Source: an uncultured Bacilli bacterium (GTDB lineage Bacteria > Bacillota_I > Bacilli_A > RF39 > UBA660). Taken from it: 52,440 bases of DNA. The translations under genes were made by a program, and so were the position numbers. The DNA is taken from NCBI GenBank assembly GCA_947629125.1, contig CANRCO010000001.1, positions 1 to 52,440 on the forward strand. The letters run 5' to 3'. Below, piece after piece: positions 3,786 through 23,658 of the stretch; position 1 is the first letter of the stretch, and each line of letters opens with the position of its first letter. Below the pieces are notes generated by a model. It was given only the letters and a program-made list of their open reading frames with translations, was not told where the DNA came from and searched no databases.

Positions 3786-3796
3786 TTTTTTACCTC

Positions 3797-5497: not shown

Positions 5498-5499
5498 TG

Positions 5500-7335: not shown

Positions 7336-7364
7336 ATTATAAAATAATTATAGGGTATTTGCAA
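7336..7364 (-). promoter_or_regulatory. Candidate sigma-A-type promoter for the paralog C-B-A operon
   Basis: On the minus strand: TTGCAA (7359-7364), a 17-nt spacer, then TATAAT (7336-7341). It lies about 70 nt upstream of the ATG at 7266. TATAAT-like hexamers are frequent by chance in AT-rich DNA. Confidence 0.4.
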
Positions 7365-7383
7365 GTATCTTATTTAAAAATCC

Positions 7384-7412
7384 ATAAAAAAAGAAATGAT
7401 TTTTCATTTCTT
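7384..7412 (-). terminator. Candidate terminator after the ABC exporter gene (the hairpin contains its TGA stop)
   Basis: Inverted repeat agaaatga / tcatttct spans roughly 7392-7409. On the minus strand it is followed by TTTTTTTATGG. Confidence 0.5.
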
Positions 7413-9047
7413 TAAAACTAATTTTTTATTTTTTAGTGTATAGATTAAATCAGCATTAAGAGCCATTTTATTATCATGAGTTATCATAATAATTGTCATT
7501 TTATTTTTTAATTTAACTAGGACTTGAGCTATTTGTTCACTAGAAGTACTATCTAAACTACTAGTTATTTCATCTAAAAGTAATATTTTAGTTTTACTAA
7601 GTAATGCCCGAGCTATTGCTAAGCGTTGTTTTTCTCCCCCACTTAAAATACTAGCATCTTCACCAATAACAGTATCATAACCTTTTTCTAAAGATTTAAT
7701 TTTTTTATCTAGCCCAACTAATTTACATACTTTTTTTATATTATTAAAGTCTTCATCAATCATGCTTAAATTTTCTTTAATACTTAAATTAAAAATATAT
7801 GGTTGTTGGGTTACTAAAGCAATATTACTTCGAATACTTTCTTCATCTAACTCATTTAATAAAGCATTATCAATATAAATTTTACCAGCAGTTGGTGTAT
7901 ATAATTTAGTAATTAAATTAAATATTGTTGTTTTACCTATGCCACTTGGCCCAACTATTGCTACAAATGATTTAGCATTAATTTTTAAATTAACATCTTT
8001 TAAAATTAAATTATTATCATAACCAAAAGAAACATTTTCTAAAGTAACACTACCTTTCACATTTGTTAATTTTTTATCACCATAGTTTTCGATTTCATAA
8101 TCTAAAACGGAAAATATTCTTTTACTAGCTAAATTAAATTGGCTTAAATAAGTAATTAAAGTAGCAAACTTATTAGAAAAATTAAAGACATTAGTTTTAT
8201 ACATAAATATGATAATAAAATTAGCAGTACTTAATAATTTATATTTAATTAAAAAGATTGCTAAAAAAACCATTAATCCATAAAAAACTGATTCCATAAA
8301 ACGAGCTATTTTATTAGATACTTCTAAATAATAACTACTTTTATATTCTAGTTCTTCGATTTTTTCAAAATTATTATTAGTTTTTAAATCAAATTTATCT
8401 TTTAATTGTAAAGTTTTAATATCTTTATTACCTTTTAATATTTCACTTACTAAAGATGTATTATTATCATTTAATAATAAACTTTGATTATGATAATAAA
8501 TACTTTTTCTTATTCCATAATATCTTATTAAAATTGTACTAATAGATGCTATTAAATAATAGATACCAATTATATAATTTAAATAAAATATATATATTAA
8601 TACTCCAATATTACTTAATGCAATAAGTAAACTTTCTTTAATGTTATTTAAAAAGTTAGCTATACTACGAGTATCATTATTTAATTTATTTAAAATAGTT
8701 CCAGTTAAATTTTCATGAGTTTTAGCATAATTTAAATTTAAAATTTTATTAAAAACTTTTCTTTTTATATTTAAAACAAATTTTTTACGAAAAGTTAAAT
8801 AATTTTTTGCTAACCTTAGATTTAAAAATGTATTAAGTAGTTGTAAACAACCTCCGACTATTGCTAAAATAAATACTATTTTATAATTAGAAGCTAATAT
8901 TTTATTTATAATATTACCATTAATTGAAGGTGTTACTGCTCCTAATATAGCAATTATTAAACCAATTACAATTAAATAAATTATTTCTTTTTGACAATTA
9001 TTTAAAAACTTTATACATTTTTTTAAATTTAAATAAGTATCTTTCAT
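7404..9047 (-). CDS. ABC exporter, fused TMD-NBD half-transporter (MsbA/PglK-like); no C39 peptidase domain
   Basis: 547 aa. The hydrophobic N-terminal half is followed by Walker A GPSGIGKTT, signature LSGGEKQRLAIARAL and Walker B ILLLDEITSSLD. The start overlaps the stop of the upstream GT4 gene by 4 nt. Confidence 0.9.
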   Translation of the reverse strand: MKDTYLNLKKCIKFLNNCQKEIIYLIVIGLIIAILGAVTPSINGNIINKILASNYKIVFILAIVGGCLQLLNTFLNLRLAKNYLTFRKKFVLNIKRKVFNKILNLNYAKTHENLTGTILNKLNNDTRSIANFLNNIKESLLIALSNIGVLIYIFYLNYIIGIYYLIASISTILIRYYGIRKSIYYHNQSLLLNDNNTSLVSEILKGNKDIKTLQLKDKFDLKTNNNFEKIEELEYKSSYYLEVSNKIARFMESVFYGLMVFLAIFLIKYKLLSTANFIIIFMYKTNVFNFSNKFATLITYLSQFNLASKRIFSVLDYEIENYGDKKLTNVKGSVTLENVSFGYDNNLILKDVNLKINAKSFVAIVGPSGIGKTTIFNLITKLYTPTAGKIYIDNALLNELDEESIRSNIALVTQQPYIFNLSIKENLSMIDEDFNNIKKVCKLVGLDKKIKSLEKGYDTVIGEDASILSGGEKQRLAIARALLSKTKILLLDEITSSLDSTSSEQIAQVLVKLKNKMTIIMITHDNKMALNADLIYTLKNKKLVLKK

Positions 9048-10171
9048 TTTAATAAATCCTTATATATTTTAGTATATTGCGGTAATATTGTTTCAATATC
9101 ATAATTTTTAGCTATTTTTAAATTATCTTTACTTAGTTTACTAGCTAATTTTGGATTATTTTTTATCTTTTTAATAGCCAGAATTAATTTTTGTGGGTCA
9201 TTTATTGGAACTACTAACCCATTTTTATTATGTTTAATTAAATCATGGTTACCGCGACAATCTGTAACAATAATTGGTTTTTGTTTAGCCATTGCTTCCA
9301 TTATATTAAGTGGTAATCCTTCTTGTTTACTAACGGATAAAACTAGATTAGTTATTTCTAAAATGGCATTAATATCATTTCTAAATCCTAAAAATAAAAT
9401 CTTATCTTCTAAATGATATTTTTTAACTAATTTTTGGACTTGTCCATTTAAAATATCTTCTCCGACTAATAAAACTTTTATATTAGTTAAATCCATTTGA
9501 CGTAAAGTTTTAACTAAATATTTTTGTCTTTTACGTTTAGAAATTTCTGCTACATAAGTAATTACATAATCATTTTTTTTAATACCTAATTCTTTTTTCA
9601 AAGTATTTTTCTCTTTTAAAGTTAATTTATTATGAAAATTATTTTGATGATAGCCGATTCCTTTAATAAAATAAGTTTTTACTTTAAAATGTTTTTTACT
9701 AAAATTATAATCTTCTTTATTAATAGTTACTAAACAATCAGTATATTTAATTAAATATTTTTCAATAGGATAATAAAGTATCCAATTAATTAAAGGTGCT
9801 CCTTTAAAAAAATGTAAACCATGAACTGTATATAATACTTTAGAATGAACTTTGGCTTTAGCAACTGCTAAACGAGTGTTTACTCCACCCATTGGAGTAC
9901 TAGTTGATATTAAATCATATTGTTCTTGTTTTAAAATTTCTGCTAATTGTTTAATAGCTTTAAAATTACAAAATTTAAAAGGAGTCCTTGTTATCGGCAA
10001 AGCAAATTTTTTATCACAATTAGGAATTTTATTTTTTGTATTAGTTGCTACATGAACAATGTAACCATTATTTTTAAACCAGGCAATATAAGGTAAATAA
10101 CATAAGTTTATATGCATATCTGTATTAGCAACTATTAAAACTTTTTTTGCCAAAATAAACCCTCCTTTCAA
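9044..10171 (-). CDS. Glycosyltransferase, GT4 family
   Basis: 375 aa. Motif EGLPLNIMEAMAKQKPIIVTD (E-x7-E) with a GT-B-type layout. Confidence 0.85.
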   Translation of the reverse strand: MKGGFILAKKVLIVANTDMHINLCYLPYIAWFKNNGYIVHVATNTKNKIPNCDKKFALPITRTPFKFCNFKAIKQLAEILKQEQYDLISTSTPMGGVNTRLAVAKAKVHSKVLYTVHGLHFFKGAPLINWILYYPIEKYLIKYTDCLVTINKEDYNFSKKHFKVKTYFIKGIGYHQNNFHNKLTLKEKNTLKKELGIKKNDYVITYVAEISKRKRQKYLVKTLRQMDLTNIKVLLVGEDILNGQVQKLVKKYHLEDKILFLGFRNDINAILEITNLVLSVSKQEGLPLNIMEAMAKQKPIIVTDCRGNHDLIKHNKNGLVVPINDPQKLILAIKKIKNNPKLASKLSKDNLKIAKNYDIETILPQYTKIYKDLLK

Positions 10172-10173
10172 AT

Positions 10174-10899
10174 TTATTGTTTTATTATTTCTTTTTTTAA
10201 TTTTAAACTAATATCGTAACGTTTGCCTTTCATTAATTGAGCTTTTATTTTTGTTTTAGTACATAAATTTTTAATTATTTCCCCCATTGAATCAACCTTT
10301 TTATTTTCGTCAAATATTTCTAATAATATTTTTAAATCTTCCTTTTTTAACCAATAAAATGGCGGAATAGCATAATTGCTTCTAGGATGAATTGGTTTTT
10401 CTTCCATATTAATTATATAATTATTTTCATCTATTTCAATAACTCCTGTTTTTTGTAATTTAGATAACTCTGGCTCAAAATAATACATAATATATGATTC
10501 GTTATTTTTATTAAAATCATCAAAAATATATTTTAAAGAAAAATCTAATAAGTTATCTCCAGCTAAAACGAAAATATCATCATTAATTTTTAAATAATCA
10601 ATTGTTTTTATTAAAGCTGATACTGCTCCAACTTTATTTTCTTCACATGTTGAACCATCACTTACTATCGTAATTTTAGTTTCTAACTTTTTCTTTTGAT
10701 GCCATTTTTTAAAATCATCTAAAAAAGTATCATTAGTAATTATAATAAATTCATCAATATGATTAGTACTGCTAATAATATTATCCATAATATAATCTAA
10801 AATATATTTTTCTTTAATATTTAATAGAGCTTTAGATTTATGTAAAGTTAATGGATACAATCTTGTCGCATAACCACCAGCTAAAATTAAACATTTCAT
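10174..10899 (-). CDS. Sugar-1-phosphate nucleotidyltransferase (NTP_transferase family)
   Basis: 241 aa. The N-terminal MKCLILAGGYATRLYPLT matches the G-x-G-T-R-L pyrophosphorylase signature. Confidence 0.85.
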   Translation of the reverse strand: MKCLILAGGYATRLYPLTLHKSKALLNIKEKYILDYIMDNIISSTNHIDEFIIITNDTFLDDFKKWHQKKKLETKITIVSDGSTCEENKVGAVSALIKTIDYLKINDDIFVLAGDNLLDFSLKYIFDDFNKNNESYIMYYFEPELSKLQKTGVIEIDENNYIINMEEKPIHPRSNYAIPPFYWLKKEDLKILLEIFDENKKVDSMGEIIKNLCTKTKIKAQLMKGKRYDISLKLKKEIIKQ

Positions 10900-12038
10900 A
10901 AACCAACTCCATTATAAGTATTACAAAAATAAATTGCAAACTCTTTTTTATATTGGGGATATATTTTAAGATATTTTTCCGTAACAGTTTTTTTAATTAT
11001 ATCCTCTTTTTGAGGATCAATCAAAGCCATATAATAGCCATTAAATCCTGCTCCAGAAAATCTTCCCCCATAAACACCATCCAAATTAGTAACGATATCA
11101 TGTAAAGTTTCTAATTGCGCCGAACCAGTTTCATAATTTTCAATTGAGCTTTTTCCCGACTCAGTTATAAGTTTGCCAAAATTAATTAAATCGCCTTTAG
11201 TAAAATATTTTATTCCTTCTTGAACTCGATTTAATTCAGTATAAAAATGGGTAGCTCTTTTAATATGATTTATCGGAAAAATATTTTTATTTTTTAAAAA
11301 TATATCATAAGAAAATTTTCTTAAATATGCTTCTTGATATTCAATTGGAGAATTTTGCATTAAAGAATTCATTAAAAATGCTGTTGTTTTACATTCATCT
11401 ACGCGAATATTATAACTTGTAGTTGGTAAATTATGAGTAATTCCTGAAAAAATTAAACATATTTTAAAATTAAGATTATCATTTATTTTAATTAATTTAT
11501 GACTATTATCTAAAGGGTCAATACATAATAAATGATTTTTCTTACTATATATTTCGCAACTTGGATCTAATATCCCGACTTTCGTATTCATATATTTATT
11601 TTCTACAGTTACAACTAAATCAACTAAGTCTTTATTTTCTAATTTTAAATTATTTACTTTAGCTATAGCTAAAAGATAACATAAAATTATTGCAGAAGAT
11701 GAAGCAAGTCCCCCAATCGGAATCGTTTTATCAATATGAGCATTTATTCCATAAATAAGTTCATATTTTTCCTTTAAAGCCTTAATACTACCTATTAAAT
11801 AATCTGGCCATAACCCATTTGTTTTTGGAATATTTTTATAAGAAAAATCAGCTACACCATCAAAATTATCCGACGTAATAAAAAAAGAACCATCAGTTGT
11901 CTTGTTAAATTTTATTTTTAATCCCTTATCAATAGCAAAACCACATATTAAACCTAGTTGATGATCTATATGAGCTCCTAAAGGACAAACTCGAAAAGGG
12001 ACAAATATTTCGTATTTATAATTAAGTTGTTTTTTCAT
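10896..12038 (-). CDS. GHMP-family, galactokinase-like anomeric sugar kinase
   Basis: 380 aa. VPFRVCPLGAHIDHQLG resembles the galactokinase signature. PIGGLASSSA is the GHMP ATP-binding motif. The stop overlaps the start of the nucleotidyltransferase gene by 4 nt. Confidence 0.8.
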   Translation of the reverse strand: MKKQLNYKYEIFVPFRVCPLGAHIDHQLGLICGFAIDKGLKIKFNKTTDGSFFITSDNFDGVADFSYKNIPKTNGLWPDYLIGSIKALKEKYELIYGINAHIDKTIPIGGLASSSAIILCYLLAIAKVNNLKLENKDLVDLVVTVENKYMNTKVGILDPSCEIYSKKNHLLCIDPLDNSHKLIKINDNLNFKICLIFSGITHNLPTTSYNIRVDECKTTAFLMNSLMQNSPIEYQEAYLRKFSYDIFLKNKNIFPINHIKRATHFYTELNRVQEGIKYFTKGDLINFGKLITESGKSSIENYETGSAQLETLHDIVTNLDGVYGGRFSGAGFNGYYMALIDPQKEDIIKKTVTEKYLKIYPQYKKEFAIYFCNTYNGVGL

Positions 12039-12110
12039 TTTACTACACCTATGTTTAATTCCTATAAATTAATTATAAAGAATAAAATTTATTATTGCAA
12101 GTCTTATAAG

Positions 12111-13163
12111 TTACTTATTTTTAATAAAGCCAAAATAATTACACATACATCTTTTACTAGGACAGATAAATTCATCTTTAATTAACTTAATATCTTTTTT
12201 TAAAGCATTACCTACTACTGATAATTCATTACAAGAAACACAACGAGAAATAATTCCTAAATTATCAATTGAAATACTATTTACTCCGGAATCACAAAGC
12301 ATACCACAAGGATTAAAACCACCTTCAACATTTAAAGCTAAATCACTAGTATTGTAAAAATAAAATTCTTGATTTTTTTGGTTTGTTACCTTTAACCATT
12401 TTTGGTTATTTCTATTTAGTTTTTGTTTTAAAGTTGCAGAAATACTTTTATGATAATCACGAATAATTATATAAACAATAGAAGAAGCATATTTTTTATA
12501 TTTCTCATAAAATTCTTGATATTTTAAATAATCTGCATCTTCAACTAAAGGATAACCAATATTAATTTTGATATTATAATTTCTCTTAGCTAAAAAATTA
12601 ATAAAAGGTGCTATAATTTTATTTTCATATTTAGCTTTTTTTAATACTAAAGAATTTATTTTAGGATGTTTATTACGAATATATTTGATTTTTTCCATGA
12701 ATTCTTTTTGATTTGTATATTCTTGATAATAATTAGCGGATATATTTAAAATTCGATTATCTAATCCTTTAAAAATATTTGTTATATTTTTTAATTGTTC
12801 TTTAGATAAAGATAAATTAGTAGTAATATAATAATTAATAATTCCCTTAAATTTAACATTAGCTAAATTAGTTAAAATAGTTATAAAATCTTTTAAAATA
12901 GTTACTTCTCCTCCAATTAAATAAAGAGAAATAGTTTTATATTTATCATTTAATTCATTTTCAATAAATTTAATAATTTTAGTACATATTTTAGCTCTTA
13001 TTTGTGCTGATTCGCCTTTACTTTCTTCAATATGTTTGTTTTTATTGCCTTGAATACAAAAATCACAATAATAGTTACATAAACTAGTTAATTGCCAACG
13101 AATTGTATAGTTTTTATCTTTTCGTTTTAAATTTTCAATTGTTTTTATTTCTGAATTTTTCAT
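12111..13163 (-). CDS. Radical SAM enzyme with a Cys-rich SPASM/twitch-like C-terminal region (paralog 1)
   Basis: 350 aa. It has a CNYYCDFC (CxxxCxxC) cluster motif. The C-terminus CGMLCDSGVNSISIDNLGIISRCVSC...CPSKRCMC fits a C-x(9-15)-G-x4-C pattern plus extra Cys. Confidence 0.8.
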   Translation of the reverse strand: MKNSEIKTIENLKRKDKNYTIRWQLTSLCNYYCDFCIQGNKNKHIEESKGESAQIRAKICTKIIKFIENELNDKYKTISLYLIGGEVTILKDFITILTNLANVKFKGIINYYITTNLSLSKEQLKNITNIFKGLDNRILNISANYYQEYTNQKEFMEKIKYIRNKHPKINSLVLKKAKYENKIIAPFINFLAKRNYNIKINIGYPLVEDADYLKYQEFYEKYKKYASSIVYIIIRDYHKSISATLKQKLNRNNQKWLKVTNQKNQEFYFYNTSDLALNVEGGFNPCGMLCDSGVNSISIDNLGIISRCVSCNELSVVGNALKKDIKLIKDEFICPSKRCMCNYFGFIKNK

Positions 13164-13210
13164 ATTATCACTTCTAATTAAAAATTATAATATTTATTAT
13201 GAAAGGAGTC

Positions 13211-13243
13211 AACAAAACAAAAAAATTTTCTATTTCTAGAAAA
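13211..13243 (-). terminator. Weak AT-only hairpin plus T-run after the 177-aa ORF
   Basis: Stem ttttcta (13226-13232) / tagaaaa (13237-13243). On the minus strand it is followed by TTTTTTTGTTTTG. The stem is all A/T, so termination efficiency is doubtful. Confidence 0.3.
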
Positions 13244-13250
13244 ATTTTAA

Positions 13251-13784
13251 TTACTTTGTCAATTTTCTTACTTTTGCTTCAGTATCATTATTTACAATTG
13301 TAGCTGGTAAATAAGTAAAATCTGTCATACTAAGCAACCCATTTTCACCATTCATTTTTTGAACTTCAAGATAATTTTTATTATTATAAACAGTAATATT
13401 ATCACTTATATAATTATATATTCCCAGTGGAACTTCCTCTACTTTGGTATTAACATTAATTAAACCATATGTTATGCTAACTTGATCTTGCTTTCCATTA
13501 GGAAAATAATTAATTTTCATAATTTTACGATATTCTTGATTATTTTTTGCAAATATTGGATTATCACTAATTTTAGAATAACCTCTTTGTTTAATTACAC
13601 TAGTTAAATCAGTTGTTTCATCAATAGCTAAGTTGGAATATTCTTTTATAGAATTAGGATTTTTATAAGCTGTATAACAAGTAGTAGCTATCATTGCTCC
13701 AACTGCCAACGTACAAAGACAACCAGGTAAACATCCAGAAGATGCATATGTTTTACCATCATCATTATGCCAATTTTCTTTCAT
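13251..13784 (-). CDS. Hypothetical protein with an N-terminal Cys-rich hydrophobic segment
   Basis: 177 aa. The N-terminus contains SSGCLPGCLCTLAVGAMIATTCYTAY. I recognise no family. Confidence 0.6.
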   Translation of the reverse strand: MKENWHNDDGKTYASSGCLPGCLCTLAVGAMIATTCYTAYKNPNSIKEYSNLAIDETTDLTSVIKQRGYSKISDNPIFAKNNQEYRKIMKINYFPNGKQDQVSITYGLINVNTKVEEVPLGIYNYISDNITVYNNKNYLEVQKMNGENGLLSMTDFTYLPATIVNNDTEAKVRKLTK

Positions 13785-13845
13785 CTAATTTTCTCCTTTT
13801 AAAATTGCAAAACATATGCTAACAAAAAATACGCATTTTGTCAAA

Positions 13846-15009
13846 TTATTTTAAAATACTTTCCCATTTATTTAATATCTTATCTTTTGTAAAATCTTGA
13901 ACTCGTTTTTGACTAGCTAATTGATAATGTTTATATAACTTTTTATCATTTAAAAGTAATAAAATACTTTTAGCTATTTCTTTTTCTTCTTTAGTTAAAG
14001 CATCACCTGCTTCATATTTAACCCGATCACAAGTCGGAATTAAAATACCATAATCTCCTAAAGTTACTTTTTTAACAAATTTATCTAACTTTTTCTTAGG
14101 GGCTAAAATTTCTTTGGAACCACCTGGAGCATCTGTAGCAATAATTGGTAAATCACAAGCCATTGCTTCTAATAAAACATTAGGCATTCCTTCATAAAAA
14201 GAATTTAAAATATATATTTTAGCATTGTGCATATAACGATAAATATTATCAACAAAATCTAGTATTATGATATTTTTTTCTAAATGTAAATCTTTAACTA
14301 ATTTTAAATAATAATCTTTATATGGTCCGCGTCCAGTCAAAATTAATTTAGCGTTCTTCTTTTGTTCAACTACTTTACTAAAAGCTCTAATTAAATGCCA
14401 TTGTCCTTTTTGATAATTATATCGACCAGAAGAAATTATTACATCACCTTTAAAATATTTTCTATCTTCACTAGGTAAAGCTTCTTGTTTTTTTTCATTA
14501 ATATCTTCAATTTCACAAAAATTAGGAATTACAATATTTTTTTTAGGTTTAGAGTGAAAATTTTCAATTTGGTCCAACATAACTGATTCAGATACATTAA
14601 CTATTAAATCAACTTTCTTAATTATTTTTTTATATTTTTTAATTAATTTTGGAGAATACATCTCATCATTAGCTGAAATAAAATTTCTAACAGAAATTAT
14701 TACTTTATCTTTATATTTAGTTACATAATTATAAATATTATATTTAAGTATAAAACTAATTGTATAGTCTATTTTTAACTCTTTTTTTACTTTTCTTAAT
14801 TTCCATAAACCAATAAAATTTTTCTTTTTACTAGTTAGTTCAGGAATTTCAATTATATTAACATCGGGAATATAATCAGCATCTTTCATCGTTCTAACTA
14901 CTAAAGTAACATTATGTTTATCTTTTAGATTATTGCATAAATTATAAATTACTTTTTCTGCCCCACCTGTACGCATAGCACCTATCAAAAATAAAATATT
15001 TTTTTTCAT
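13846..15009 (-). CDS. Glycosyltransferase, GT4 family (paralog of 18231..19385)
   Basis: 387 aa. Motifs: GGAEKV at the N-terminus and EGMPNVLLEAMACDLPIIATDAPGGSKEIL. Confidence 0.85.
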   Translation of the reverse strand: MKKNILFLIGAMRTGGAEKVIYNLCNNLKDKHNVTLVVRTMKDADYIPDVNIIEIPELTSKKKNFIGLWKLRKVKKELKIDYTISFILKYNIYNYVTKYKDKVIISVRNFISANDEMYSPKLIKKYKKIIKKVDLIVNVSESVMLDQIENFHSKPKKNIVIPNFCEIEDINEKKQEALPSEDRKYFKGDVIISSGRYNYQKGQWHLIRAFSKVVEQKKNAKLILTGRGPYKDYYLKLVKDLHLEKNIIILDFVDNIYRYMHNAKIYILNSFYEGMPNVLLEAMACDLPIIATDAPGGSKEILAPKKKLDKFVKKVTLGDYGILIPTCDRVKYEAGDALTKEEKEIAKSILLLLNDKKLYKHYQLASQKRVQDFTKDKILNKWESILK

Positions 15010-16614
15010 TTAATCACCTACATTTTCTTTATACCACAATTGAAATAAATAATAAGACCATAAAACAACAGCTCGATCATAATCTTTATTAATTTCAAAA
15101 TCAATTATTAAATTCATTAAATTATTATAATCAAATAAATTTTGTTTTGCTATAAAATTTTTCGTTGATATTTTTTTGATATCATCTAACATAAATTTCT
15201 GAACCCAACTAATTAAAGGAATCCCAAACCCTTTTTTTTGATAATTAGCAAAATATTTCATCGGAATATTTTTAAATAAAATATTATCAAAGATAAGTTT
15301 ACCATGACCATGATGATATATCTTTTTTGTTTTTAATTTAAAAGTATCTAATATTAATTGTTCATTATAAAAAGGTGTATAAAACGCCATATTAATATTT
15401 TTTAAAGGATAAAAATACTTCATCCGATATTTTTCACTAACTGTATTATTTAAATCACCAAGACATGCTCGATATCTTTTATTTTTTAATTTTGGCAAAT
15501 CATAAACTTGTCCCTTAATTTTAACTAAATTATTGGAATACCGAAAACGACTTACAATATTTATTTGCGCCATTTGGTCAAAATTATGATATTTTCTTTG
15601 TCTAAAATATTTATTAAAAATTAATTTTAATCGACCTTTTAAATCAAATATTTTATACATTTCATTAGCTAAAAATATTGCATCACTACCTTCGCCCATT
15701 AAATAAAAATCATTTTTATCAGTTATATTATTAATTAAGTAATTTGTTGGAATAATTGAAGGGTCTGCAAATGGTTCTTCATATATTTTAGCTAAAGATT
15801 TAATAGTATCTTTAATTTTATTTTCTTTTAAAATAATAGTATGATGATTAGTTTTTAAAAACTTTGCAATTTTTTTCGCAGCAGGAGCTTCATCATTTTG
15901 ACTAGGAATAGATAAAGTATAAGTATTAATAGTTGGTAAATAACAATCTTGGGTCTTTTTAGCTAGAAGGACTGAATCTTTACCACTACTCAAAAACACC
16001 CCTACTTGGCTTTTCTTTTTGCCAACTTGAGCTACTAAATTATTTATTGTCTTTTCTAAATCGACATCATTATTTTTCAAAGTGTTTTTATATTCATTTG
16101 CTAAATTAAAATAATTTTTAATTTTAATATTTTTAAAATTATATTCTAATATGGAACCTTTAGGTACTTTATAGATATTTTCATAAATAGTAAATGGTTC
16201 ATAAATATAAGTATAACCTAAGTAATTAGCTAAAGCTTGTTTATTTATTTTTTTTACAATACTAGGTAATTTAGTAATCTCTTTTAAAGAATCACTAAAA
16301 ATTAACAATCTATTTTGGAAAGTATAAAACAAAGGATAACTCCCTAATTTATCTTTAATTAAAAATAAAGTTTCTTTATTTTTATCAAAAATTATCATAT
16401 TAAAATTACCAGTCAACTCATCAATAAATTTTAAATTGGTTTTAGTATATAAATCTAATAGAATATTTAATTCATTAACACTATTTATTTTATTTTTTTG
16501 TTTTAACTTTTCTAAATTAAAAATGGTTCCAATTAAATATATTTCAACATTATCATGACTTATTTTTTTTGGTAAATTTATTTTAAAGCTCTTATCTTTT
16601 TGTAAACTTATCAT
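15010..16614 (-). CDS. Asparagine synthetase (AsnB)-like ATP-dependent amidoligase lacking the N-terminal Cys nucleophile
   Basis: 534 aa. It begins MISLQKD rather than MCG. It keeps the AsnB-type GNFNMIIFDK..LFLIKDKLGSYPLFY segment and a PP-loop-like FLSSGKDS. Confidence 0.8.
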   Translation of the reverse strand: MISLQKDKSFKINLPKKISHDNVEIYLIGTIFNLEKLKQKNKINSVNELNILLDLYTKTNLKFIDELTGNFNMIIFDKNKETLFLIKDKLGSYPLFYTFQNRLLIFSDSLKEITKLPSIVKKINKQALANYLGYTYIYEPFTIYENIYKVPKGSILEYNFKNIKIKNYFNLANEYKNTLKNNDVDLEKTINNLVAQVGKKKSQVGVFLSSGKDSVLLAKKTQDCYLPTINTYTLSIPSQNDEAPAAKKIAKFLKTNHHTIILKENKIKDTIKSLAKIYEEPFADPSIIPTNYLINNITDKNDFYLMGEGSDAIFLANEMYKIFDLKGRLKLIFNKYFRQRKYHNFDQMAQINIVSRFRYSNNLVKIKGQVYDLPKLKNKRYRACLGDLNNTVSEKYRMKYFYPLKNINMAFYTPFYNEQLILDTFKLKTKKIYHHGHGKLIFDNILFKNIPMKYFANYQKKGFGIPLISWVQKFMLDDIKKISTKNFIAKQNLFDYNNLMNLIIDFEINKDYDRAVVLWSYYLFQLWYKENVGD

Positions 16615-18227
16615 GTTTTATCCCTCCATAAATCTTCTATATATTCTTGGTACCATAATTGAAAGATATAATAAGCAAAAATTATATTACATTCTCGGCG
16701 GTCTAAAGATTTATTTTGTAATTTTTTTAGAAGTTTTAAAAATTGTTTATCAAATAAATTTTGTTTTTTTAAAATTTCATAATTACTAAATTTTATAATA
16801 TCATTATAGAATATATTATACAAATATTTTTCTAAAGGAATACCAAAACCATTTTTCTTTTGATTTAAATAACTTTGGGGAATTTTTTGATAAACTATGT
16901 TTTTTAAAATATATTTAGTTATATTTTGATAATATTTAAATTTATGTTTTATTTGTAAGCTTTTTTGTACTACTATATTATCTACAAAAGGATGAGCTAA
17001 ATTTAAACCATAATAATTAGCTGGATTACTTACTTTATAAAATAAATTACAAGATAAAAAAGTTTTAATATCGTTTAACATAAACTTAATTTGCGAACTA
17101 AACTGATGGGGAATTACATTATAGATTTGAGATTTTAAAGGATAATATAATGCTAGTTGTCGATTAGATTTTAAATATGGATTATAAACAATGACATTTT
17201 TATTTTTTAAATGTTGAATTTTTTGACGCAAAATTGTCATTCGCTCACTTATATTCCATTCTTTGTAAACATTGGAACCACAAAATAATTGGTCAGCACC
17301 ATCACCAGTAAAGATTATATCCATATTTTTTACTTTACTGTTTAAAAATATAGTTGGAACCAATGACGGATCAGCAAATGGTTCACTATATATCTTAGGT
17401 ACTAATTTAATAATTTTTTCAACATCTTTATCAGTTATATAATATTCGTGATGCTTGGTCTTTAAATGCTTAGCAATTTTTTTACTACGTACTGCTTCAT
17501 TGCGTTCTTCTTCATTAAAACCAATTGTAAAGGTATGAACTTCTTTTTTAGCTTCTTTTAATAAAGCAGCTACTAAAGTAGAATCTACTCCTGCACTAAA
17601 AAAGACCCCAACTTTTTTATAGTTTTGCGATTGCATCTTAACAGCATCATATAAACTTTGTTCTAATTTTTGTTGAGCTAAATCATAATTTTTTAATTTA
17701 TTTTTATTGACTTTATATGCTTTTATTAAATCATAATATTGATTAAGTATAATTTGTTCATTAAATTTTAAAGCCATACCTGCTGGTAATTTTTTTACTT
17801 CTGTAAAAATAGTCATTGGTTCTAAAATATAATTATAACTTAAATAGTTAGCTAATTGTTGTCGGTCAATATTTAAATCAGTTTTATAATTATTTATAAT
17901 ATATTTCAAGTTATTAGAACAAATAAAATCTTGATTAATTAAAGTATAATATAGTCGTTTAGAGCCCATTTTATCTTTAACTATAATAATTTCTCCAGCA
18001 ATAATTAAAATAAGTAAAAAATTACCATTTAACAAATTAAATAATTTGTCTTGATAACGGTTATATAAATCAATTAATTTTGACTCAATAGATTTAGAAG
18101 AATTATCTAATTCATTTATATTATAAATATTACCAGCAATAAAGCAGTAATCTTTATTTATTTGTTTAACATTATTTTCAATAATTACTTTTATTTTATT
18201 TTTTCTTTTTATTACTGTAAATTCCAT
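16611..18227 (-). CDS. Asparagine synthetase (AsnB)-like enzyme lacking the N-terminal Cys nucleophile (second copy)
   Basis: 538 aa. It begins MEFTVIK. Motifs: GNFLLILIIAGEIIIVKDKMGSKRLYY and PP-loop FFSAGVDS. The stop overlaps the next gene start by 4 nt. Confidence 0.8.
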   Translation of the reverse strand: MEFTVIKRKNKIKVIIENNVKQINKDYCFIAGNIYNINELDNSSKSIESKLIDLYNRYQDKLFNLLNGNFLLILIIAGEIIIVKDKMGSKRLYYTLINQDFICSNNLKYIINNYKTDLNIDRQQLANYLSYNYILEPMTIFTEVKKLPAGMALKFNEQIILNQYYDLIKAYKVNKNKLKNYDLAQQKLEQSLYDAVKMQSQNYKKVGVFFSAGVDSTLVAALLKEAKKEVHTFTIGFNEEERNEAVRSKKIAKHLKTKHHEYYITDKDVEKIIKLVPKIYSEPFADPSLVPTIFLNSKVKNMDIIFTGDGADQLFCGSNVYKEWNISERMTILRQKIQHLKNKNVIVYNPYLKSNRQLALYYPLKSQIYNVIPHQFSSQIKFMLNDIKTFLSCNLFYKVSNPANYYGLNLAHPFVDNIVVQKSLQIKHKFKYYQNITKYILKNIVYQKIPQSYLNQKKNGFGIPLEKYLYNIFYNDIIKFSNYEILKKQNLFDKQFLKLLKKLQNKSLDRRECNIIFAYYIFQLWYQEYIEDLWRDKT

Positions 18228-18230
18228 CTT

Positions 18231-19385
18231 TTATTCCTCGATAATTTTTAACCAATCTTGCATAACTAAAATATTTGTAAAATCATTGATTCTAGTTAAG
18301 GATTTTTTGTGATATTCTTCATAAGTTTGTTTATTTTCTAACAATTCTATTATGGCCTTAGCTAATATTTTTTCATTTTTGGTAATTGTCTCAATTTCAT
18401 GTTCATTAATAAAACTAGGTATCAATAAACCATAATCACTTTTTGTTAATTTCGTTGTTATATTATTAAAATCATAAGTTTTACTTAAAATTTCTTTAGA
18501 ACCACCTGGAGCATCTGTAGCAATAACTGGCGTACCACAACTCATAGCTTCAATTATTACATTAGGAAATCCTTCATAATCACTAGCTAATATAAAACAT
18601 TTTGCCTTTTTTAAAAATTGATAAGGATTAGGATGAAATCCTAAAAAGAAAACATTATTCTCTAAATGATACTTTTTAACTAGCTCTTCTAAATATTCTT
18701 TTTGAGGTCCACGACTAAAAATAACTAAATGAGCATCTTTAACATTTTTTACAACCAAACTCATAGCTTTAATTATATGTTTATGTCCTTTATGAGGTAC
18801 TAATCTTGCTAAAGCAACTACTAAATGGTCATTAACAATTGGTTTATCTTCTTTACTAAAACGTTTTTTTACTTCTGTAGCGATTTCTTCCAAATTGCAA
18901 AAATTAGTTATAACTGCCACTTTTTCGGCAGCAGCATGATAATTATTTATTTGGTCATTTGCTACGCTATTCGAACAACAAACTATTTTATCGGCTTTTT
19001 TCAAAGATATTTTGTGTAAAATTGTGGGAATAAATCCCTCTTTTTTCGTTGATAAATGGTTACGAACAGAAATTATTACTTTATCTTTATATTTTGTAAT
19101 AGCATTAAAAAAATTAAAAACTGTAGTATAACTTATCGTTACATCAATTTTATATTCTTTTTTTAACTGACGAATTTTACGAATACCAAATATTTTTTTC
19201 TTTTTATTTTTTAAATCGGGTACTTCAATAATTGGCACAGTAGTTTCATAATCTTGATTACGTTTTGAAACTACTACTAATATTACGTTATGTTTTTTTT
19301 GTAATTCATTAGCTAACTTAATTATGGAATGCTCTGCTCCACCATTAGATAGATAACCAATAAGTAACATAATATTTTTTGCCAT
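18231..19385 (-). CDS. Glycosyltransferase, GT4 family (paralog of 13846..15009)
   Basis: 384 aa. Motifs: GGAEHS and EGFPNVIIEAMSCGTPVIATDAPGGSKEIL. Confidence 0.85.
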   Translation of the reverse strand: MAKNIMLLIGYLSNGGAEHSIIKLANELQKKHNVILVVVSKRNQDYETTVPIIEVPDLKNKKKKIFGIRKIRQLKKEYKIDVTISYTTVFNFFNAITKYKDKVIISVRNHLSTKKEGFIPTILHKISLKKADKIVCCSNSVANDQINNYHAAAEKVAVITNFCNLEEIATEVKKRFSKEDKPIVNDHLVVALARLVPHKGHKHIIKAMSLVVKNVKDAHLVIFSRGPQKEYLEELVKKYHLENNVFFLGFHPNPYQFLKKAKCFILASDYEGFPNVIIEAMSCGTPVIATDAPGGSKEILSKTYDFNNITTKLTKSDYGLLIPSFINEHEIETITKNEKILAKAIIELLENKQTYEEYHKKSLTRINDFTNILVMQDWLKIIEE

Positions 19386-19386
19386 A

Positions 19387-20445
19387 TTAAGACCTTCTTT
19401 CTATTAAAGTATAATAATCACAATTACATTTTGTAGCGGGACAAATAAACGGTTTAGAAATTAATTTTAAGTCATTATCTAAAATATTAGTAATTATAGT
19501 TTCTTTAGCACAACTTAAACAGCGTGAAACATCACCCATATTATTAATAGTGATACTATTCATTCCTGAATCACAATACATACCTTTTGGATTAAAAGTA
19601 TCTGATACTTTTATATTTATTTTACTTGTATTAGTAAAATAAATTTGTTCATTATTTTTTAAAGTAACTCTTATTTTTGGATAATTATTTTTATTTAATT
19701 TCTGTTTTAATTTAGAAGAAATACTTTTCTTATAATTACGAATAATTATATAGTTAATAGTATTAACATACTTTTTATAATGTTTTTTAAATTTTTTAAA
19801 TGCTTGATAATCTTCATCAGTAACTAAAGGATAACTTACTCCAATGTAAATATTGGAAATGTCTTTTTCCCATTTATTAATTAGTTTTTTTAATAATTTT
19901 ATTTTTTTAAATAAATAAGCATTATTAACAAATAATTGTTTTATTTTATTTTTAATTTGAAATATTTTTAATTTATCAATAAAATCTTGAGGTGTTGTAT
20001 ATTCTTTATAATAACTAGCTGTTAAATTAAGAAAACGATTATTTTTATTTTGAAAAATATCTTTTATTTTTTGTAAATTGTCTTTTGATGTTGATAAATT
20101 AGTGGTAATAAAAATTTTAATTATGCCCGGAAATTTAGAATTTACTAAATCATTTAATATTTTAGAAAAGTCCTTTAAAATAGTTATTTCTCCCCCAATA
20201 AGATATAAATAAATTTTTTGATATTTTTTACTTACTTCATTTTCTATAAATTTAATTAAATTAGCACATATGTGCTCGCGAATTTTCATTGATTCCTTTT
20301 TACTATCACTTAGATGTTTAGCTTTATTTCCTTGCACACAAAAATCACAACTATAATTACATAATTTAGTAATATTCCATCTAATTATATAAGTATTTTT
20401 ATCTATTCGTAAATTCTCAATTTTAATTATATCTTCATTTTTCAT
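19387..20445 (-). CDS. Radical SAM enzyme with a SPASM/twitch-like C-terminus (paralog 2)
   Basis: 352 aa. Motifs: CNYSCDFC and the C-terminal CDSGMNSITINNMGDVSRCLSC...CPATKCNC. By eye it is about half identical to 12111..13163. Confidence 0.8.
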   Translation of the reverse strand: MKNEDIIKIENLRIDKNTYIIRWNITKLCNYSCDFCVQGNKAKHLSDSKKESMKIREHICANLIKFIENEVSKKYQKIYLYLIGGEITILKDFSKILNDLVNSKFPGIIKIFITTNLSTSKDNLQKIKDIFQNKNNRFLNLTASYYKEYTTPQDFIDKLKIFQIKNKIKQLFVNNAYLFKKIKLLKKLINKWEKDISNIYIGVSYPLVTDEDYQAFKKFKKHYKKYVNTINYIIIRNYKKSISSKLKQKLNKNNYPKIRVTLKNNEQIYFTNTSKINIKVSDTFNPKGMYCDSGMNSITINNMGDVSRCLSCAKETIITNILDNDLKLISKPFICPATKCNCDYYTLIERRS

Positions 20446-20510
20446 AACAACCTCTAACTACATAAAAATATCATATCACAAAATTTTAGGTAAATAAATA
20501 AAGTATTCAT

Positions 20511-21806
20511 CTATTTTGAATACTTTTTATTTTCATTTAATAGCCCCATAACTATATAAAATAATGGTGCTACCATAATAACACTGATATTGAAGAAAGC
20601 TTGAATTAAATAAGCTAGAAAGGCCAGAAAATAAATGTAATTTTCTTTTCTATCTTCTTTATTTTTTATATATTTAATTATTGTAAATACTAGTAAACCT
20701 AAATAAGTAATTATAGAGAAAATACCTTCGGTAATAAATTTTTGTAAATATTCATTATGAGCTTTATCAAAACATTGTCCTTTTGAACCAATACCCACAC
20801 ATATATAATTACCCTCATTTATTAAAGAAAAATTATCAATACCCATACCAGTTAAATAATATTTTGGGGCATAAGAAAGTGTTTTTTTCCAAACATATAC
20901 ACGATAATTACCTGTTTCATCAGTGATACCTTTTTTAAATATATTTTTAATTTCAATGAAATTTTTATTCATGGTATAAGTAATACGATGGTTAGCAAAT
21001 TGGTCAAAAATTAATATTAACGCAATTAATAATCCTAAAGTAGATGACCCATATAGAACTACTTTTTTAATATTATTTTTATTTATTTTAGTTAACAATG
21101 TAATGAGAATAATTAATCCAGCTGCTAGATAACAACTAGTTGTATTACCAATAATTAAACCGTAACCAAATAACAATGTTAATAAACCATAAATTATACC
21201 ATGCTTTTTATCTTTTGCTTGAAGTAATTTACCATAAACTAACATCAAACACATTAAAATATAACTTGAATAAAAGTTGGGATTACTTAATGTGCCACTA
21301 GCAAATTTAAAATGAGCTGACCAATTATCACTACGGTCATAACCTAAAATATTTTCAATTCGCAATGTTTGAATTGTTCCTAATAAAATTTGATATATAC
21401 CACTAATTATAATCGTATAAAATATAACTTTTTTTTGGTCTTTATTTAATGTAGATGCTAATAAAAAGATAAAGTAATAACTTAATATAACTAATAACCC
21501 TTCAAAACGACCTTCAGCACCATATAAAGCCATTTTACCATCAAGGGCAAATTTATATGATATATAAGCAAATATAATTAATAATAAAATAAATAAATCT
21601 TTAAAATGGATTTTATCACGATTAATTATTTTATATGTTGTGTAAAAAAATAATGCACAAAAGCCAAAACAAAATAAGCCTAAAGAAAAATAATAATAAG
21701 AAAAGTCAAAGATAATTTTAATTGTTGTACCAACACTTAAATATGCCACTAATAGTATTATTAGTAGCATATTTATAAGGTCGTTCATTTTTTTTAAACG
21801 TTTCAT
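20511..21806 (-). CDS. Wzy_C / O-antigen ligase-family polytopic membrane protein (candidate O-oligosaccharyltransferase or polymerase)
   Basis: 431 aa with many hydrophobic helices. The segment KAHNEYLQKFITEGIFS matches the H-N-x-x-L-x4-E-x-G signature of WaaL, PilO/TfpO and PglL family proteins. Its ATG (21804-21806) overlaps the TAA (21806-21808) of the restored reading frame of the last pilin gene. Confidence 0.75.
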   Translation of the reverse strand: MKRLKKMNDLINMLLIILLVAYLSVGTTIKIIFDFSYYYFSLGLFCFGFCALFFYTTYKIINRDKIHFKDLFILLLIIFAYISYKFALDGKMALYGAEGRFEGLLVILSYYFIFLLASTLNKDQKKVIFYTIIISGIYQILLGTIQTLRIENILGYDRSDNWSAHFKFASGTLSNPNFYSSYILMCLMLVYGKLLQAKDKKHGIIYGLLTLLFGYGLIIGNTTSCYLAAGLIILITLLTKINKNNIKKVVLYGSSTLGLLIALILIFDQFANHRITYTMNKNFIEIKNIFKKGITDETGNYRVYVWKKTLSYAPKYYLTGMGIDNFSLINEGNYICVGIGSKGQCFDKAHNEYLQKFITEGIFSIITYLGLLVFTIIKYIKNKEDRKENYIYFLAFLAYLIQAFFNISVIMVAPLFYIVMGLLNENKKYSK

Positions 21807-22416
21807 TAATTTGATCCTGTTGAAATGCCAATGTCTGATGAAGTGCCTAAATTTTCCAAATCAAAATATTGTCTTAAACTATTATCAGAAGTAGCATATG
21901 CATAATTACATTCCTTACTTTTAAATACATTTAGACTTCCAAGATTATACATTGTAGAACCTGACCTTTCGCCGCCCTGCGAAATATAATTAACCGTTCG
22001 ATTATTTAATTTTACTACTTTACCAACGATTTTAGTATCATTATCATTGCTAGCATCTTCACCATCTATTGCTAATTTTGAATCAGATATAAAATATATT
22101 TTATTAATTTTTCCATTAGAATCTTTATTTATTTTTACTGAGCCAAAATAACCATCCTTAGCACTTTATCATAGTAGCCTAAATCAGCAAGATATTGCAT
22201 AGAAATAATTATATAATCATATTGATTTAATTCAGCTCTACTACTATAAGCAAGTTCTGCAGCTTTAACAAGAGCTCGACCATCATCAATTAATGATTTT
22301 CTTCGTGATTGGTCAAGAATTGGTAAAACACCAACTGCTGCTATCAACATAACAATTGCTAAAATGGTAATTACGGCTAGTAATTCGATTAGTGTAAATC
22401 CTTTTGTATTATTCAT
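21806..22416 (-). pseudogene. Type IV pilin-like gene 3, interrupted by a 1-nt frameshift near 22163
   Basis: The N-terminus MNNTKGFTLIELLAVITILAIVMLIAAVGV is intact. After ..LGYYDK the annotated frame stops at 22135. The -1-nt frame instead reads AKDGYFGSVKINKDSNGKINKIYFISD...ENLGTSSDIGISTGSN* down to 21806, parallel to DGYSGSVYIEYNGG in pilin 1. Confidence 0.7.
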
Positions 22417-22430
22417 TCTCAGCCTACTTC

Positions 22431-23027
22431 CTAATCACTTACAGTTGCAAGTTCAGTAACACTAGGAATACTTCCACTAGCACCAGAATTTGTAAAGAAT
22501 ACTAAACCAGTACTTTTCATTTTTACGCCAGTATGAGTTTTTAAATAATCATATAATTTTTGACCACCACTAACTGTACTTGTATAAGCTAAAAAGGCTG
22601 TATTATACTCTGCATCAGTCTTATCATCAGATTCTCTTCGTGAATAATCTGTATTATCACCTACTGAAAGCGGTTTTCTCTTATAACCATATGTACCATC
22701 ACTTATCGAAAAATGATATTCTACTTTTTTGCCATTTTTTTCAACATGAACAGCACCGCTATAACTAGATGATTGTTTATCATAGTAACCTAAATCACTT
22801 AAAAAATTTAAACTTAAAACCAAATCATCATACTTTCGCAAAGAAGAATTTTCAGTATAAGCAAGTTCTGCAGCTTTTACTAATTCTCTACCTTCATTTA
22901 ATAAAGATTTTGCTTTTGACTTTTCAATCATTGGCAATACACCAATTGCAGCAATAAGCATTACTATACCTAAAATAGTTATTACTGCTAATAATTCGAT
23001 TAATGTAAATCCTTTACTTTTTTTCAT
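22431..23027 (-). CDS. Type IV pilin / pseudopilin-like protein 2 (prepilin N-terminal cleavage/methylation motif)
   Basis: 198 aa. MKKSKGFTLIELLAVITILGIVMLIAAIGV has the G/FTLIE class III signal with Glu5. The C-terminal tail is Ser/Thr/Gly-rich (NSGASGSIPSVTELATVSD). Confidence 0.85.
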   Translation of the reverse strand: MKKSKGFTLIELLAVITILGIVMLIAAIGVLPMIEKSKAKSLLNEGRELVKAAELAYTENSSLRKYDDLVLSLNFLSDLGYYDKQSSSYSGAVHVEKNGKKVEYHFSISDGTYGYKRKPLSVGDNTDYSRRESDDKTDAEYNTAFLAYTSTVSGGQKLYDYLKTHTGVKMKSTGLVFFTNSGASGSIPSVTELATVSD

Positions 23028-23088
23028 TTTCTAACCTACTTTCCTATTTTTAAATTTACTATAATATTTAATAAAAAATAATAATATT

Positions 23089-23658
23089 TTATAATTTTTT
23101 ATTATAAATGCTTACTTTTTTACCACCTATGGTTATACTTTGACCTTCATTTATATTACTTGTTCCAGCATATGATGAATTACCACTGTAACAAACTGCT
23201 TCATAATGTTTTGCACTTTCTTTTATTGATTTAGATAAAACATAATCTTTAGCATTTTTATCTTGCATATTATTCATATTTTGCCAAGCAGTTGCTCCAC
23301 TTTTTGTTTCATAACCAATAGTACCTATTTCACTTTTTATTGTATATTTTTTAATTAATTCACCACCATTATATTCAATATAAACACTACCAGAATAGCC
23401 ATCTTCTATACCTTTATCAAAAAAATTTTTATCATGTAACCATTCTAAAGAAATACAAACATTTTTGCCAACCATTTGTTTATTATCAGAATATGCAAGT
23501 TCAGCAGCATGAACTAATGTTTTTCCTTCATCAAATAAAGCATCATTTTTTGATTTAGTCATTACTGGTATAACTCCAATTGCAGCAATAAGCATTACTA
23601 TACCTAAAATAGTTATTACCGCTAATAATTCAATTAAAGTAAAACCTTTTTTATTCAT
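23089..23658 (-). CDS. Type IV pilin / pseudopilin-like protein 1
   Basis: 189 aa. MNKKGFTLIELLAVITILGIVMLIAAIGV. The first ~55 aa are near-identical to pilins 2 and 3; the rest is divergent. Confidence 0.85.
   Translation of the reverse strand: MNKKGFTLIELLAVITILGIVMLIAAIGVIPVMTKSKNDALFDEGKTLVHAAELAYSDNKQMVGKNVCISLEWLHDKNFFDKGIEDGYSGSVYIEYNGGELIKKYTIKSEIGTIGYETKSGATAWQNMNNMQDKNAKDYVLSKSIKESAKHYEAVCYSGNSSYAGTSNINEGQSITIGGKKVSIYNKKL

Follow-up and report, generated by a model that had tools for sequence, protein, structure and literature searches.

The stretch of DNA analysed here (the window) comprises 52,440 nucleotides of contig CANRCO010000001.1 from an uncultured Bacilli bacterium. At positions 12111-20445 it carries two radical S-adenosylmethionine (rSAM) genes, two glycosyltransferase family 4 (GT4) genes and two AsnB-like genes, which are arranged as a mirror image although they are all encoded on one strand. 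We find that this segment is the core of a single-strand surface-glycan operon of approximately 21 kb (about 1012-21806). Judged by the sequence comparisons described below, the six genes are probably three ancient paralog pairs whose members each belong to their own orthologous lineage and were not copied within the locus. The mirror is real, but it is likely to be incidental and to reflect shuffling among ancient paralogs rather than duplication of a three-gene module.

From 1012 to 23658 every open reading frame (ORF) is on the minus strand (the window has about 22% G+C, and the genome 78% A+T). These ORFs are the following:

23658-22135, minus strand, three genes of prepilin type, just upstream of Wzy_C and carrying the N-terminal methylation motif KGFTLIELL
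20511-21806, minus strand, Wzy_C, opening gene of the operon, multi-pass membrane protein resembling O-antigen ligase/polymerase (Pfam)
19387-20445, minus strand, rSAM1, with a SPASM/twitch-like Cys-rich C-terminus (Pfam Radical_SAM)
18231-19385, minus strand, GT4_1, orthogroup 1 (Pfam Glycos_transf_1 and Glyco_transf_4)
16611-18227, minus strand, AsnB1, AsnB-like candidate amide ligase without the glutaminase nucleophile (Pfam Asn_synthase)
15010-16614, minus strand, AsnB2, second and anciently diverged AsnB-like candidate amide ligase (Pfam Asn_synthase and GATase_7)
13846-15009, minus strand, GT4_2, orthogroup 2 (Pfam)
13251-13784, minus strand, orphan predicted ORF of 177 aa with one hydrophobic segment (no family match)
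12111-13163, minus strand, rSAM2, deep-branching member of the rSAM1 family (homology to rSAM1)
10896-12038, minus strand, galactokinase-like GHMP sugar-1-kinase (Pfam GHMP_kinases_N)
10174-10899, minus strand, sugar-1-phosphate nucleotidyltransferase (Pfam NTP_transferase)
9044-10171, minus strand, GTx, GT4 of the Glyco_trans_4_2 type (Pfam)
7404-9047, minus strand, MsbA/PglK-like ABC exporter with fused transmembrane and nucleotide-binding domains, candidate flippase for a lipid-linked glycan (Pfam ABC_membrane and ABC_tran)
2172-7266, minus strand, three paralogous secreted or anchored proteins of 537, 566 and 588 aa (no family match)
1012-2085, minus strand, G3, PglH-like, the last GT4 of the operon (Pfam)

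The genes of the operon are tightly packed on the same strand, and no intrinsic terminators were predicted within the minus-strand intergenic gaps in a scan of positions 900-20800, which returned 176 promoter-like sites (180 expected) and 2 terminator-like sites (3 expected) and was uninformative in all other respects. An earlier sequence-only reading of the window had described the mirror, and its observations proved accurate. The six ORFs were confirmed at their coordinates on the minus strand, and their order is indeed palindromic (A-B-C-C'-B'-(o)-A'; that is, rSAM, GT4, AsnB-like, AsnB-like, GT4, orphan, rSAM). According to BLASTP the rSAM proteins, estimated by eye as roughly half identical, share 50% identity over 355 residues (E 1e-121), the GT4 proteins share 44% over 387 residues (E 2e-105) and the AsnB-like proteins 32% over 526 residues (E 2e-69). 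The motifs picked out by eye, IRW..T.LCNY.CDFC.QGNK.KH and YLIGGE.TILKDF for the rSAM pair and KYKDKVIISVRN and IATDAPGGSKEIL for the GT4 pair, are present in the pair alignments. Pfam upholds the family labels (Radical_SAM; Glycos_transf_1 and Glyco_transf_4; Asn_synthase and GATase_7), the gene content agrees with a glycan locus, and neither AsnB-like protein begins with Met-Cys, as expected for the Cys-less type. The statement that this combination of genes corresponds to no described pathway also stands with regard to the curated family models and the literature searched.

How informative is the mirror? By simple counting, 6 of the 90 distinct orders of two A, two B and two C genes are palindromic (6.7%), and the pattern is therefore statistically unremarkable. 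At the DNA level only the rSAM pair retains 72-74% identity, across 170-300 nt, in a genome of 78% A+T. A recent duplication was considered and rejected, because the DNA comparison shows no sign of a recent repeat.

The relationships of the six genes were established by comparison with related loci. For this purpose the neighbourhoods of thirteen rSAM family members were retrieved, orthologs were assigned by BLAST identities, and neighbour-joining trees with bootstraps were evaluated by counting unrooted splits. GT4_1 is 73% identical to its ortholog in locus L002, 68% in L076, 65% in L009, 61% in L012 and 54% in L007, compared with 44% to GT4_2, and the orthologs of GT4_2 reach 73% in L001 and L002, 69% in L009, 67% in L076 and 63% in L012. 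Likewise, AsnB1 has orthologs in L002 (57%) and L007 (45%) but is only 32% identical to AsnB2, whose own orthologs are found in L002 (54%), L076 (53%) and L009 (48%). rSAM1 is 56% identical to P0002, its ortholog in L002, versus 50% to rSAM2, while rSAM2 forms a deep branch with 46-51% identity to every other family member. The orthogroup clades of GT4_1, GT4_2, AsnB1 and AsnB2 were each recovered in 100 of 100 bootstraps, and a clade that contains rSAM1 and P0002 and excludes rSAM2 in 85 of 100. The window copies were sisters in 0/100 bootstraps for GT4, 0/100 for the AsnB-like proteins and 2/100 for rSAM. The sequence-only reading had proposed a trio repeated twice, with each trio installing one residue; in none of the three pairs, however, are the two copies each other's closest relatives. 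Because the orthologs elsewhere are closer than the paralogs within the window and the copies are not sisters, the sequences do not support duplication of a module, on the very test that the sequence-only reading had named.

The same gene set is found reordered in L002, L007, L009, L012 and L076, of which only L002 shares the order of the window. With W for Wzy_C, R for rSAM, G1 and G2 for GT4 types 1 and 2, A1 and A2 for AsnB-like types 1 and 2, K for the kinase, N for the nucleotidyltransferase and Gx for GTx, the orders are:

Window, W-R-G1-A1-A2-G2-orphan-R-K-N-Gx-ABC-(3 secreted)-G3
L002, W-R-G1-A1-A2-G2, contig end
L009, W-R-G1-G2-K-N-A2-Gx-ABC-G3
L012, W-R-(two arylsulfotransferase-like genes)-G1-G2-?-?-K-N
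L007, W-DUF6020-R-G1-K-Gx-ABC-G3-A1
L076, W-(YfhO, opposite strand)-G1-G2-K-A2-R-N-Gx-ABC-G3

L001, the sole locus obtained from a scan of genome contigs, matches L002 in order and identities. In L009, L012 and L076 the G2 gene follows immediately after G1, with neither an AsnB-like nor an rSAM gene between them. Copy numbers vary independently, as seen in the ratio of 1 rSAM to 4 GT4 to 1 AsnB-like gene in L009 and L076. We propose that, in the lineage leading to the window and L002, an old adjacent G1-G2 pair was split by two neighbouring AsnB-like genes, and that the mirror order would then have been produced by the extra rSAM and the orphan ORF which this genome has downstream. Since the orphan has no homolog outside the assemblies of this organism, it may have arrived together with rSAM2. 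The mirror order is uninformative with regard to mechanism, and what it shows is that such glycan loci keep their genes but change the order of these freely. In L012 (5952-9558) two arylsulfotransferase-like genes, one of them with LRR_5 repeats, lie between the rSAM gene and the GT4 pair, which hints at glycan sulfation in that organism.

A glycan context is present in about 16 of approximately 20 distinct rSAM loci with usable flanks, and a scan of metagenome contigs added family members of 30-46% identity from higher-G+C organisms. The sequence-only reading had asked for a search for the rSAM, GT4 and AsnB-like trio across genomes; the steadiest neighbour of the rSAM gene turned out to be Wzy_C and not the AsnB-like gene. 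Wzy_C is located directly beside the rSAM gene in L002, L005, L009 and L012, where the stop codon of one gene often overlaps the start codon of the other; in L007, L011, L075 and L076 it lies in the vicinity. GT4 and GT2 genes recur near the rSAM homologs, and AsnB-like genes occur together with rSAM in 7 of 12 low-G+C loci. A gene of the UDP-glucose/GDP-mannose dehydrogenase family adjoins the rSAM gene in L005, L017 and L074/L027 and also occurs within L075, accompanied in L005 and L017 by a short-chain dehydrogenase/reductase (SDR) epimerase. Genes for right-handed beta-helix proteins resembling pectate lyase or chondroitinase B are present in L005, L011, L018, L019, L021, L025 and L075. 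Further neighbours are membrane-bound O-acyltransferases (MBOATs), annotated in L005 and L025 and matched in size by unannotated 481-aa ORFs in L019, L028 and L031, as well as multi-pass membrane proteins of 534-550 aa (L018, L019, L025), ABC-2/Wzt (L021) and YfhO (L015, L076). The predicted functions of these neighbours tie the rSAM gene to glycan assembly, often together with uronic-acid genes, with no fixed trio with GT4 and AsnB.

Several of these loci show features of their own. In L005 (6685-11107) a UDP-sugar dehydrogenase gene and an SDR epimerase gene lie between two rSAM genes, and in L074 (3518-5552) two rSAM genes stand in direct tandem, the second copy being 40% identical to rSAM1 and rSAM2 of the window. 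Because these two loci also carry a pair, otherwise arranged, the rSAM gene has been doubled more than once. In the higher-G+C loci L019 (3555-7742), L025 (7642-10004) and L028 (128-2527) the rSAM gene is located downstream of an MBOAT gene and upstream of beta-helix proteins. The MBOAT is annotated in L025 alone of these three, the 481-aa ORFs of L019 and L028 being assigned by size and position. We take this layout to be reminiscent of alginate-type acetylation and epimerisation machinery. L019 has, in addition, several single-pass proteins of about 300 aa without a Pfam match beside the MBOAT-like ORF, and L025 encodes a fusion of the beta-helix protein with a CheR-type methyltransferase.

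The window rSAM proteins contain the CxxxCxxC motif (C29, C33 and C36), which is invariant in 34 homologs, as are five C-terminal cysteines (C291-X12-G-X4-C309, C335, C340 and C342); a further one, C312, is present in 29 of the 34. rSAM2 carries the same invariant set as rSAM1. With 37.6 bits rSAM1 exceeds the cutoff of 29.5 for the Radical SAM superfamily (PF04055), and rSAM2, with an identical CxxxCxxC motif, falls just under it (27.0 bits). More specific models do not claim them. The best NCBIfam model, the STM4011 family (NF038073), gives 50.1 and 45.9 bits against a cutoff of 200, so that they are not members; the viperin model gives 34.6 and 29.8 bits against 180 and MoaA about 27 against 284, with the N-terminal core alone aligned, and Pfam SPASM is not matched. 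A search of PDB sequences with the rSAM profile returned viperin only (E 0.2). A confident AlphaFold (AF2) model was obtained from the 34-sequence alignment (pLDDT 88.7, pTM 0.86). According to Foldseek its best matches are the SPASM/twitch enzymes EpeE, MoaA, SuiB, BlsE, TigE and SpeY, at TM-scores of only 0.41-0.46 and identities of 11-16%. The highest TM-score is that of BlsE, which acts on a glucuronic-acid nucleoside.

The family is small. Among 5.8 billion proteins it forms 34 clusters (E<=1e-3). When 1.84 billion representatives were searched with the profile, 57 matches fell below 1e-30, of which about 40 are full-length with at least 260 bits. Past the full-length members the scores fall to about 117 bits, a drop that gives the family a clear boundary. 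Relatives of the next tier have no curated assignment either, the STM4011 family being the best-scoring model, and the literature searched held nothing relevant to the window rSAM family. The window rSAM proteins represent a small family of predicted radical SAM enzymes for which neither a curated model nor, among the publications searched, a description turned up. One member in the representative library, P0083 (588 aa, 208 bits), is fused to an N-terminal domain of about 260 aa. The sole match of this domain, for which no PDB match was found, is GT_PLOD (GT-A-like) at a sub-threshold 22 versus 27 bits, which is a hint only.

Both AsnB-like proteins lack approximately 50-70 N-terminal residues, including the nucleophilic Cys, and this Cys is found in none of their orthologs. 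AsnB1 starts with MEFTV and AsnB2 with MISLQ; longer ORFs are excluded by in-frame stop codons immediately before each start. The PP-loop, on the other hand, is intact (SAGVDS in AsnB1 and SSGKDS in AsnB2), and both proteins belong to the AsnB fold (PF00733, PP-loop SxGxDS) with 196 and 99 bits, respectively, against a cutoff of 21. Neither is a glutamine-hydrolysing asparagine synthetase (TIGR01536; 202.9 and 155.3 versus 267 bits), the alignment to this model beginning at about position 70-75. Their best NCBIfam match is TIGR03108, the WbpS-type uronamide family, where they remain far below the cutoff (205 bits for AsnB1 and 175 for AsnB2 versus 817), and the lasso-peptide cyclase model NF033535 is missed by a wide margin (65 and 84 versus 525 bits). 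The best PDB match of AsnB2 is the hydroxyamidotransferase 7ylz. Because the glutaminase Cys is absent, glutamine cannot be the nitrogen donor of these enzymes.

The Wzy_C protein (PF04932, 53.6 bits against a cutoff of 31.7) has about 9 hydrophobic segments, and its sole PDB sequence match is the WaaL-like ligase 7tpg (E 4e-6). Orthologs of 50-54% identity are positioned directly upstream of rSAM in L002, L009 and L012; in L007 and L076 they lie a short distance away. GT4_1 and GT4_2 have the Glyco_transf_4 N-domain and the Glycos_transf_1 C-domain (121/108 and 58/43 bits) and do not reach the PglJ equivalog, which is the best NCBIfam match of GT4_1 (137/135 versus 500 bits). The GHMP kinase scores 160-175 bits with galactokinase models, under their cutoffs, and matches galactokinases in the PDB with E 4e-28; its orthologs are 54-65% identical (L007, L009, L012, L076). 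The nucleotidyltransferase (NTP_transferase, 108 bits) has orthologs in L009, L012 and L076, and GTx orthologs of 55-57% identity in L007, L009, L074 and L076 always lie beside the ABC gene. For the ABC exporter itself, MsbA (240 bits) is the best model and PglK follows with 180 bits, both below cutoff, and orthologs of 47-53% identity are present in L007, L009, L011, L074 and L076. G3 matches PglH best (158 versus 600 bits) and has orthologs of 43-51% identity in L007, L009, L011 and L076.

The 177-aa orphan ORF has no Pfam or NCBIfam match and no homolog at any related locus; it contains one transmembrane-like segment at about residue 18 in a Cys-rich hydrophobic N-terminus (...SSGCLPGCLCTLAVGAMIATTCY...). 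The three secreted paralogs are 31-43% identical to one another and have no Pfam or NCBIfam match. In each of them a hydrophobic anchor at the N-terminus precedes a ...LWTTT or ...FWTVS motif, and the C-terminal end is conserved (...PVLYLKP.VKIISG.G...). In L007 the gene immediately upstream of Wzy_C encodes a weak homolog, and a DUF6273 protein of L011 shows a short match. A SipW/TasA-type signal peptide was considered for these proteins and dropped for want of backing from any NCBIfam or Pfam model. Of the prepilin-type genes, the third (22135-22416, 93 aa) resembles a truncated copy, with 64% identity to residues 1-84 of the 198-aa protein. Outside the operon, a 1421-aa ORF without a Pfam match (31917-36182, minus strand) adjoins an AddAB-like helicase/nuclease pair (26390-31837).

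We propose the following pathway, in which substrates and reaction types are inferred from gene content, motifs and associations. The galactokinase-like kinase and the nucleotidyltransferase would activate sugars, and a lipid-linked oligosaccharide would be assembled by the five GT4 enzymes at the cytoplasmic face. Both AsnB-like enzymes may activate the carboxylates of sugars (uronic acids) by adenylation and turn them into amides, with free ammonia or another amine as the donor. Both rSAM enzymes would abstract hydrogen from a sugar, most likely a nucleotide-linked uronic acid, and thereby bring about epimerisation, diol dehydration/decarboxylation or oxidation. For these reactions there are precedents, namely diol dehydration/decarboxylation in BlsE and oxidation in BtrN and SpeY, and epimerisation is precedented as well. 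The product would be flipped by the MsbA/PglK-like ABC exporter and ligated or polymerised by Wzy_C outside the membrane. A uronic acid that is transferred, amidated and radically modified had already been suggested by the sequence-only reading. The uronic-acid and amidation part of this suggestion gains indirect support from the dehydrogenase, SDR epimerase and beta-helix neighbours of the rSAM homologs and from TIGR03108 as the best match of the AsnB-like proteins; the repeated trio to which it was attached is not supported. Taken as a whole, a surface-glycan operon of ancient, reordered paralogs which encodes this pathway is the explanation we favour, with reasonable though not full confidence.

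A number of observations weigh against it. The Pfam scan of the operon turned up no initiating phosphoglycosyltransferase. A UDP-sugar dehydrogenase is not present there either, so that the link to uronic acids is borrowed from related loci. The scores of the rSAM, AsnB-like and GT4 proteins with curated models are all far under the family cutoffs. No glycan context is visible at L010, L013, L022 and L029. AsnB-like genes were not found by BLAST in the higher-G+C group, and they are absent from the visible part of L011, L012 and L074. As for the history of the locus, the position of rSAM2 in the tree is poorly resolved, and the contigs of L001 and L002 stop directly past G2, so that a second rSAM gene may lie beyond.

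A bolder proposal can be built on the same pathway. The rSAM proteins might be a new SPASM/twitch-like family for surface glycans, which acts on uronic-acid sugars (UDP-uronic acid or uronamide, by C-epimerisation or diol dehydration/decarboxylation) together with Wzy_C-type enzymes. In the window, two rSAM enzymes and two AsnB-type enzymes would then give two differently tailored uronamides, possibly non-ammonia amides, on a glycan that maybe decorates secreted proteins or pilins. We put this forward tentatively, as a conceivable but not the expected outcome.

Could the glycan be destined for proteins? A more specific version of our explanation, and one compatible with it, is protein O-glycosylation, in which Wzy_C is an oligosaccharyltransferase of the PglL/WsaB type and the acceptors are the secreted paralogs (2172-7266) and/or the pilin-like proteins (22135-23658). 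Wzy_C is indeed combined with an MsbA/PglK-type ABC exporter and GT4 enzymes whose sub-threshold best matches include PglJ, PglH and PglK. Candidate substrates are encoded within the operon and directly upstream of it, the secreted paralogs being possible acceptors. Moreover, Wzy_C is directly preceded by the secreted-protein homolog in L007, and unannotated proteins of 486-489 aa are encoded upstream of it in L002 and L008. However, all scores with the Pgl models are far under the cutoffs, the adjacency of the prepilin genes to Wzy_C is not conserved in the related loci, and Wzy_C alone cannot tell a ligase, a polymerase and an oligosaccharyltransferase apart. We therefore consider this version rather unlikely in its specific form.

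Duplication of an rSAM, GT4 and AsnB-like module, with internal rearrangement of one copy and with each trio installing and tailoring one sugar residue, might seem the natural explanation of three paralog pairs inside 8.3 kb. L002 shares the order rSAM-GT4-AsnB-AsnB-GT4, and G1 directly follows the rSAM1-type gene in the window, L002, L007 and L009. In addition to the bootstrap results given above, however, the divergences of the pairs differ widely (50, 44 and 32% identity) and do not fit a single event. Related loci hold 1 rSAM with 3-4 GT4 and 0-1 AsnB-like genes, and the three loci with G1 and G2 side by side have no AsnB-like or rSAM gene between the two. This makes the duplicated trio improbable. 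Still less credible is a cluster for a ribosomally synthesized and post-translationally modified peptide, with lasso-type or beta-lactam-synthetase-type cyclases as the AsnB-like proteins, peptide maturases as the rSAM proteins, the ABC exporter and the orphan as precursor: Cys-less AsnB homologs do include lasso cyclases, the top Foldseek matches include the peptide-modifying EpeE, SuiB and TigE, and the ABC protein has scores with bacteriocin-exporter models as well, but the lasso scores are far too low, neither a leader peptidase nor a B protein is found in the window or the related loci, the 177-aa orphan is not conserved and no conserved short ORF was seen beside rSAM across loci, and the conserved partners are carbohydrate genes (Wzy_C, GT4s, sugar kinase, nucleotidyltransferase and UDP-sugar dehydrogenase).

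Our preferred reading, an operon for a tailored surface glycan, can be compared with several known systems. WbpS, WbqG and PGN_1234 (TIGR03108, eps_aminotran_1) turn a sugar carboxylate into an amide and are required genetically for the conversion of uronic acid to uronamide (PMC7468200). Like them, the AsnB-like proteins of the window have the AsnB fold, are encoded in glycan loci and keep the PP-loop ATP-pyrophosphatase motif. They differ by their low scores with the family model and by the absence of the N-terminal region with the nucleophilic Cys, and the likeness is functional only. The glutaminase-less AsnB-type enzymes are candidates for the mostly unassigned enzymes by which bacterial glycans acquire uronamides or uronic acids amidated with amino acids.

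With the SPASM/twitch enzymes (BlsE, MoaA, SpeY/BtrN, EpeE and SuiB) the window rSAM proteins have in common the CxxxCxxC core and a C-terminal Cys-rich motif of the CX12GX4C type, whereas the low structural similarity and the lack of a match to Pfam SPASM set them apart. The context differs as well, since those enzymes belong to antibiotic, cofactor or RiPP clusters and the window rSAM genes to a cell-surface glycan operon. For the STM4011 family, the best curated model at about a quarter of its cutoff, no function is described in the literature searched. With few exceptions, genes of the rSAM family are located in surface-glycan operons, in gut and rumen-type bacteria. To our knowledge radical chemistry is rare in polysaccharide assembly, and the family is for this reason a candidate for a new sugar-tailoring reaction. 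This proposal and that for the AsnB-type enzymes are both open to direct testing in vitro.

The operon as a whole resembles the Campylobacter-type Pgl pathway and the S-layer glycosylation (slg) clusters of Gram-positive bacteria, in that a single operon brings together GT4 enzymes of the PglH/PglJ type, a flippase-like ABC exporter of the PglK/MsbA type, a membrane enzyme of the Wzy_C family and genes for nucleotide sugars. In comparison with these systems it has no PglB, no initiating enzyme of the PglC type and no bacillosamine genes, its equivalog scores are far below the cutoffs, and it adds the rSAM and the Cys-less AsnB-like genes. By its predicted gene content, then, the locus belongs with the known Wzy_C/ABC/GT4 surface-glycan operons, and what makes it unusual is its rSAM family and its glutaminase-less AsnB-type ligases.

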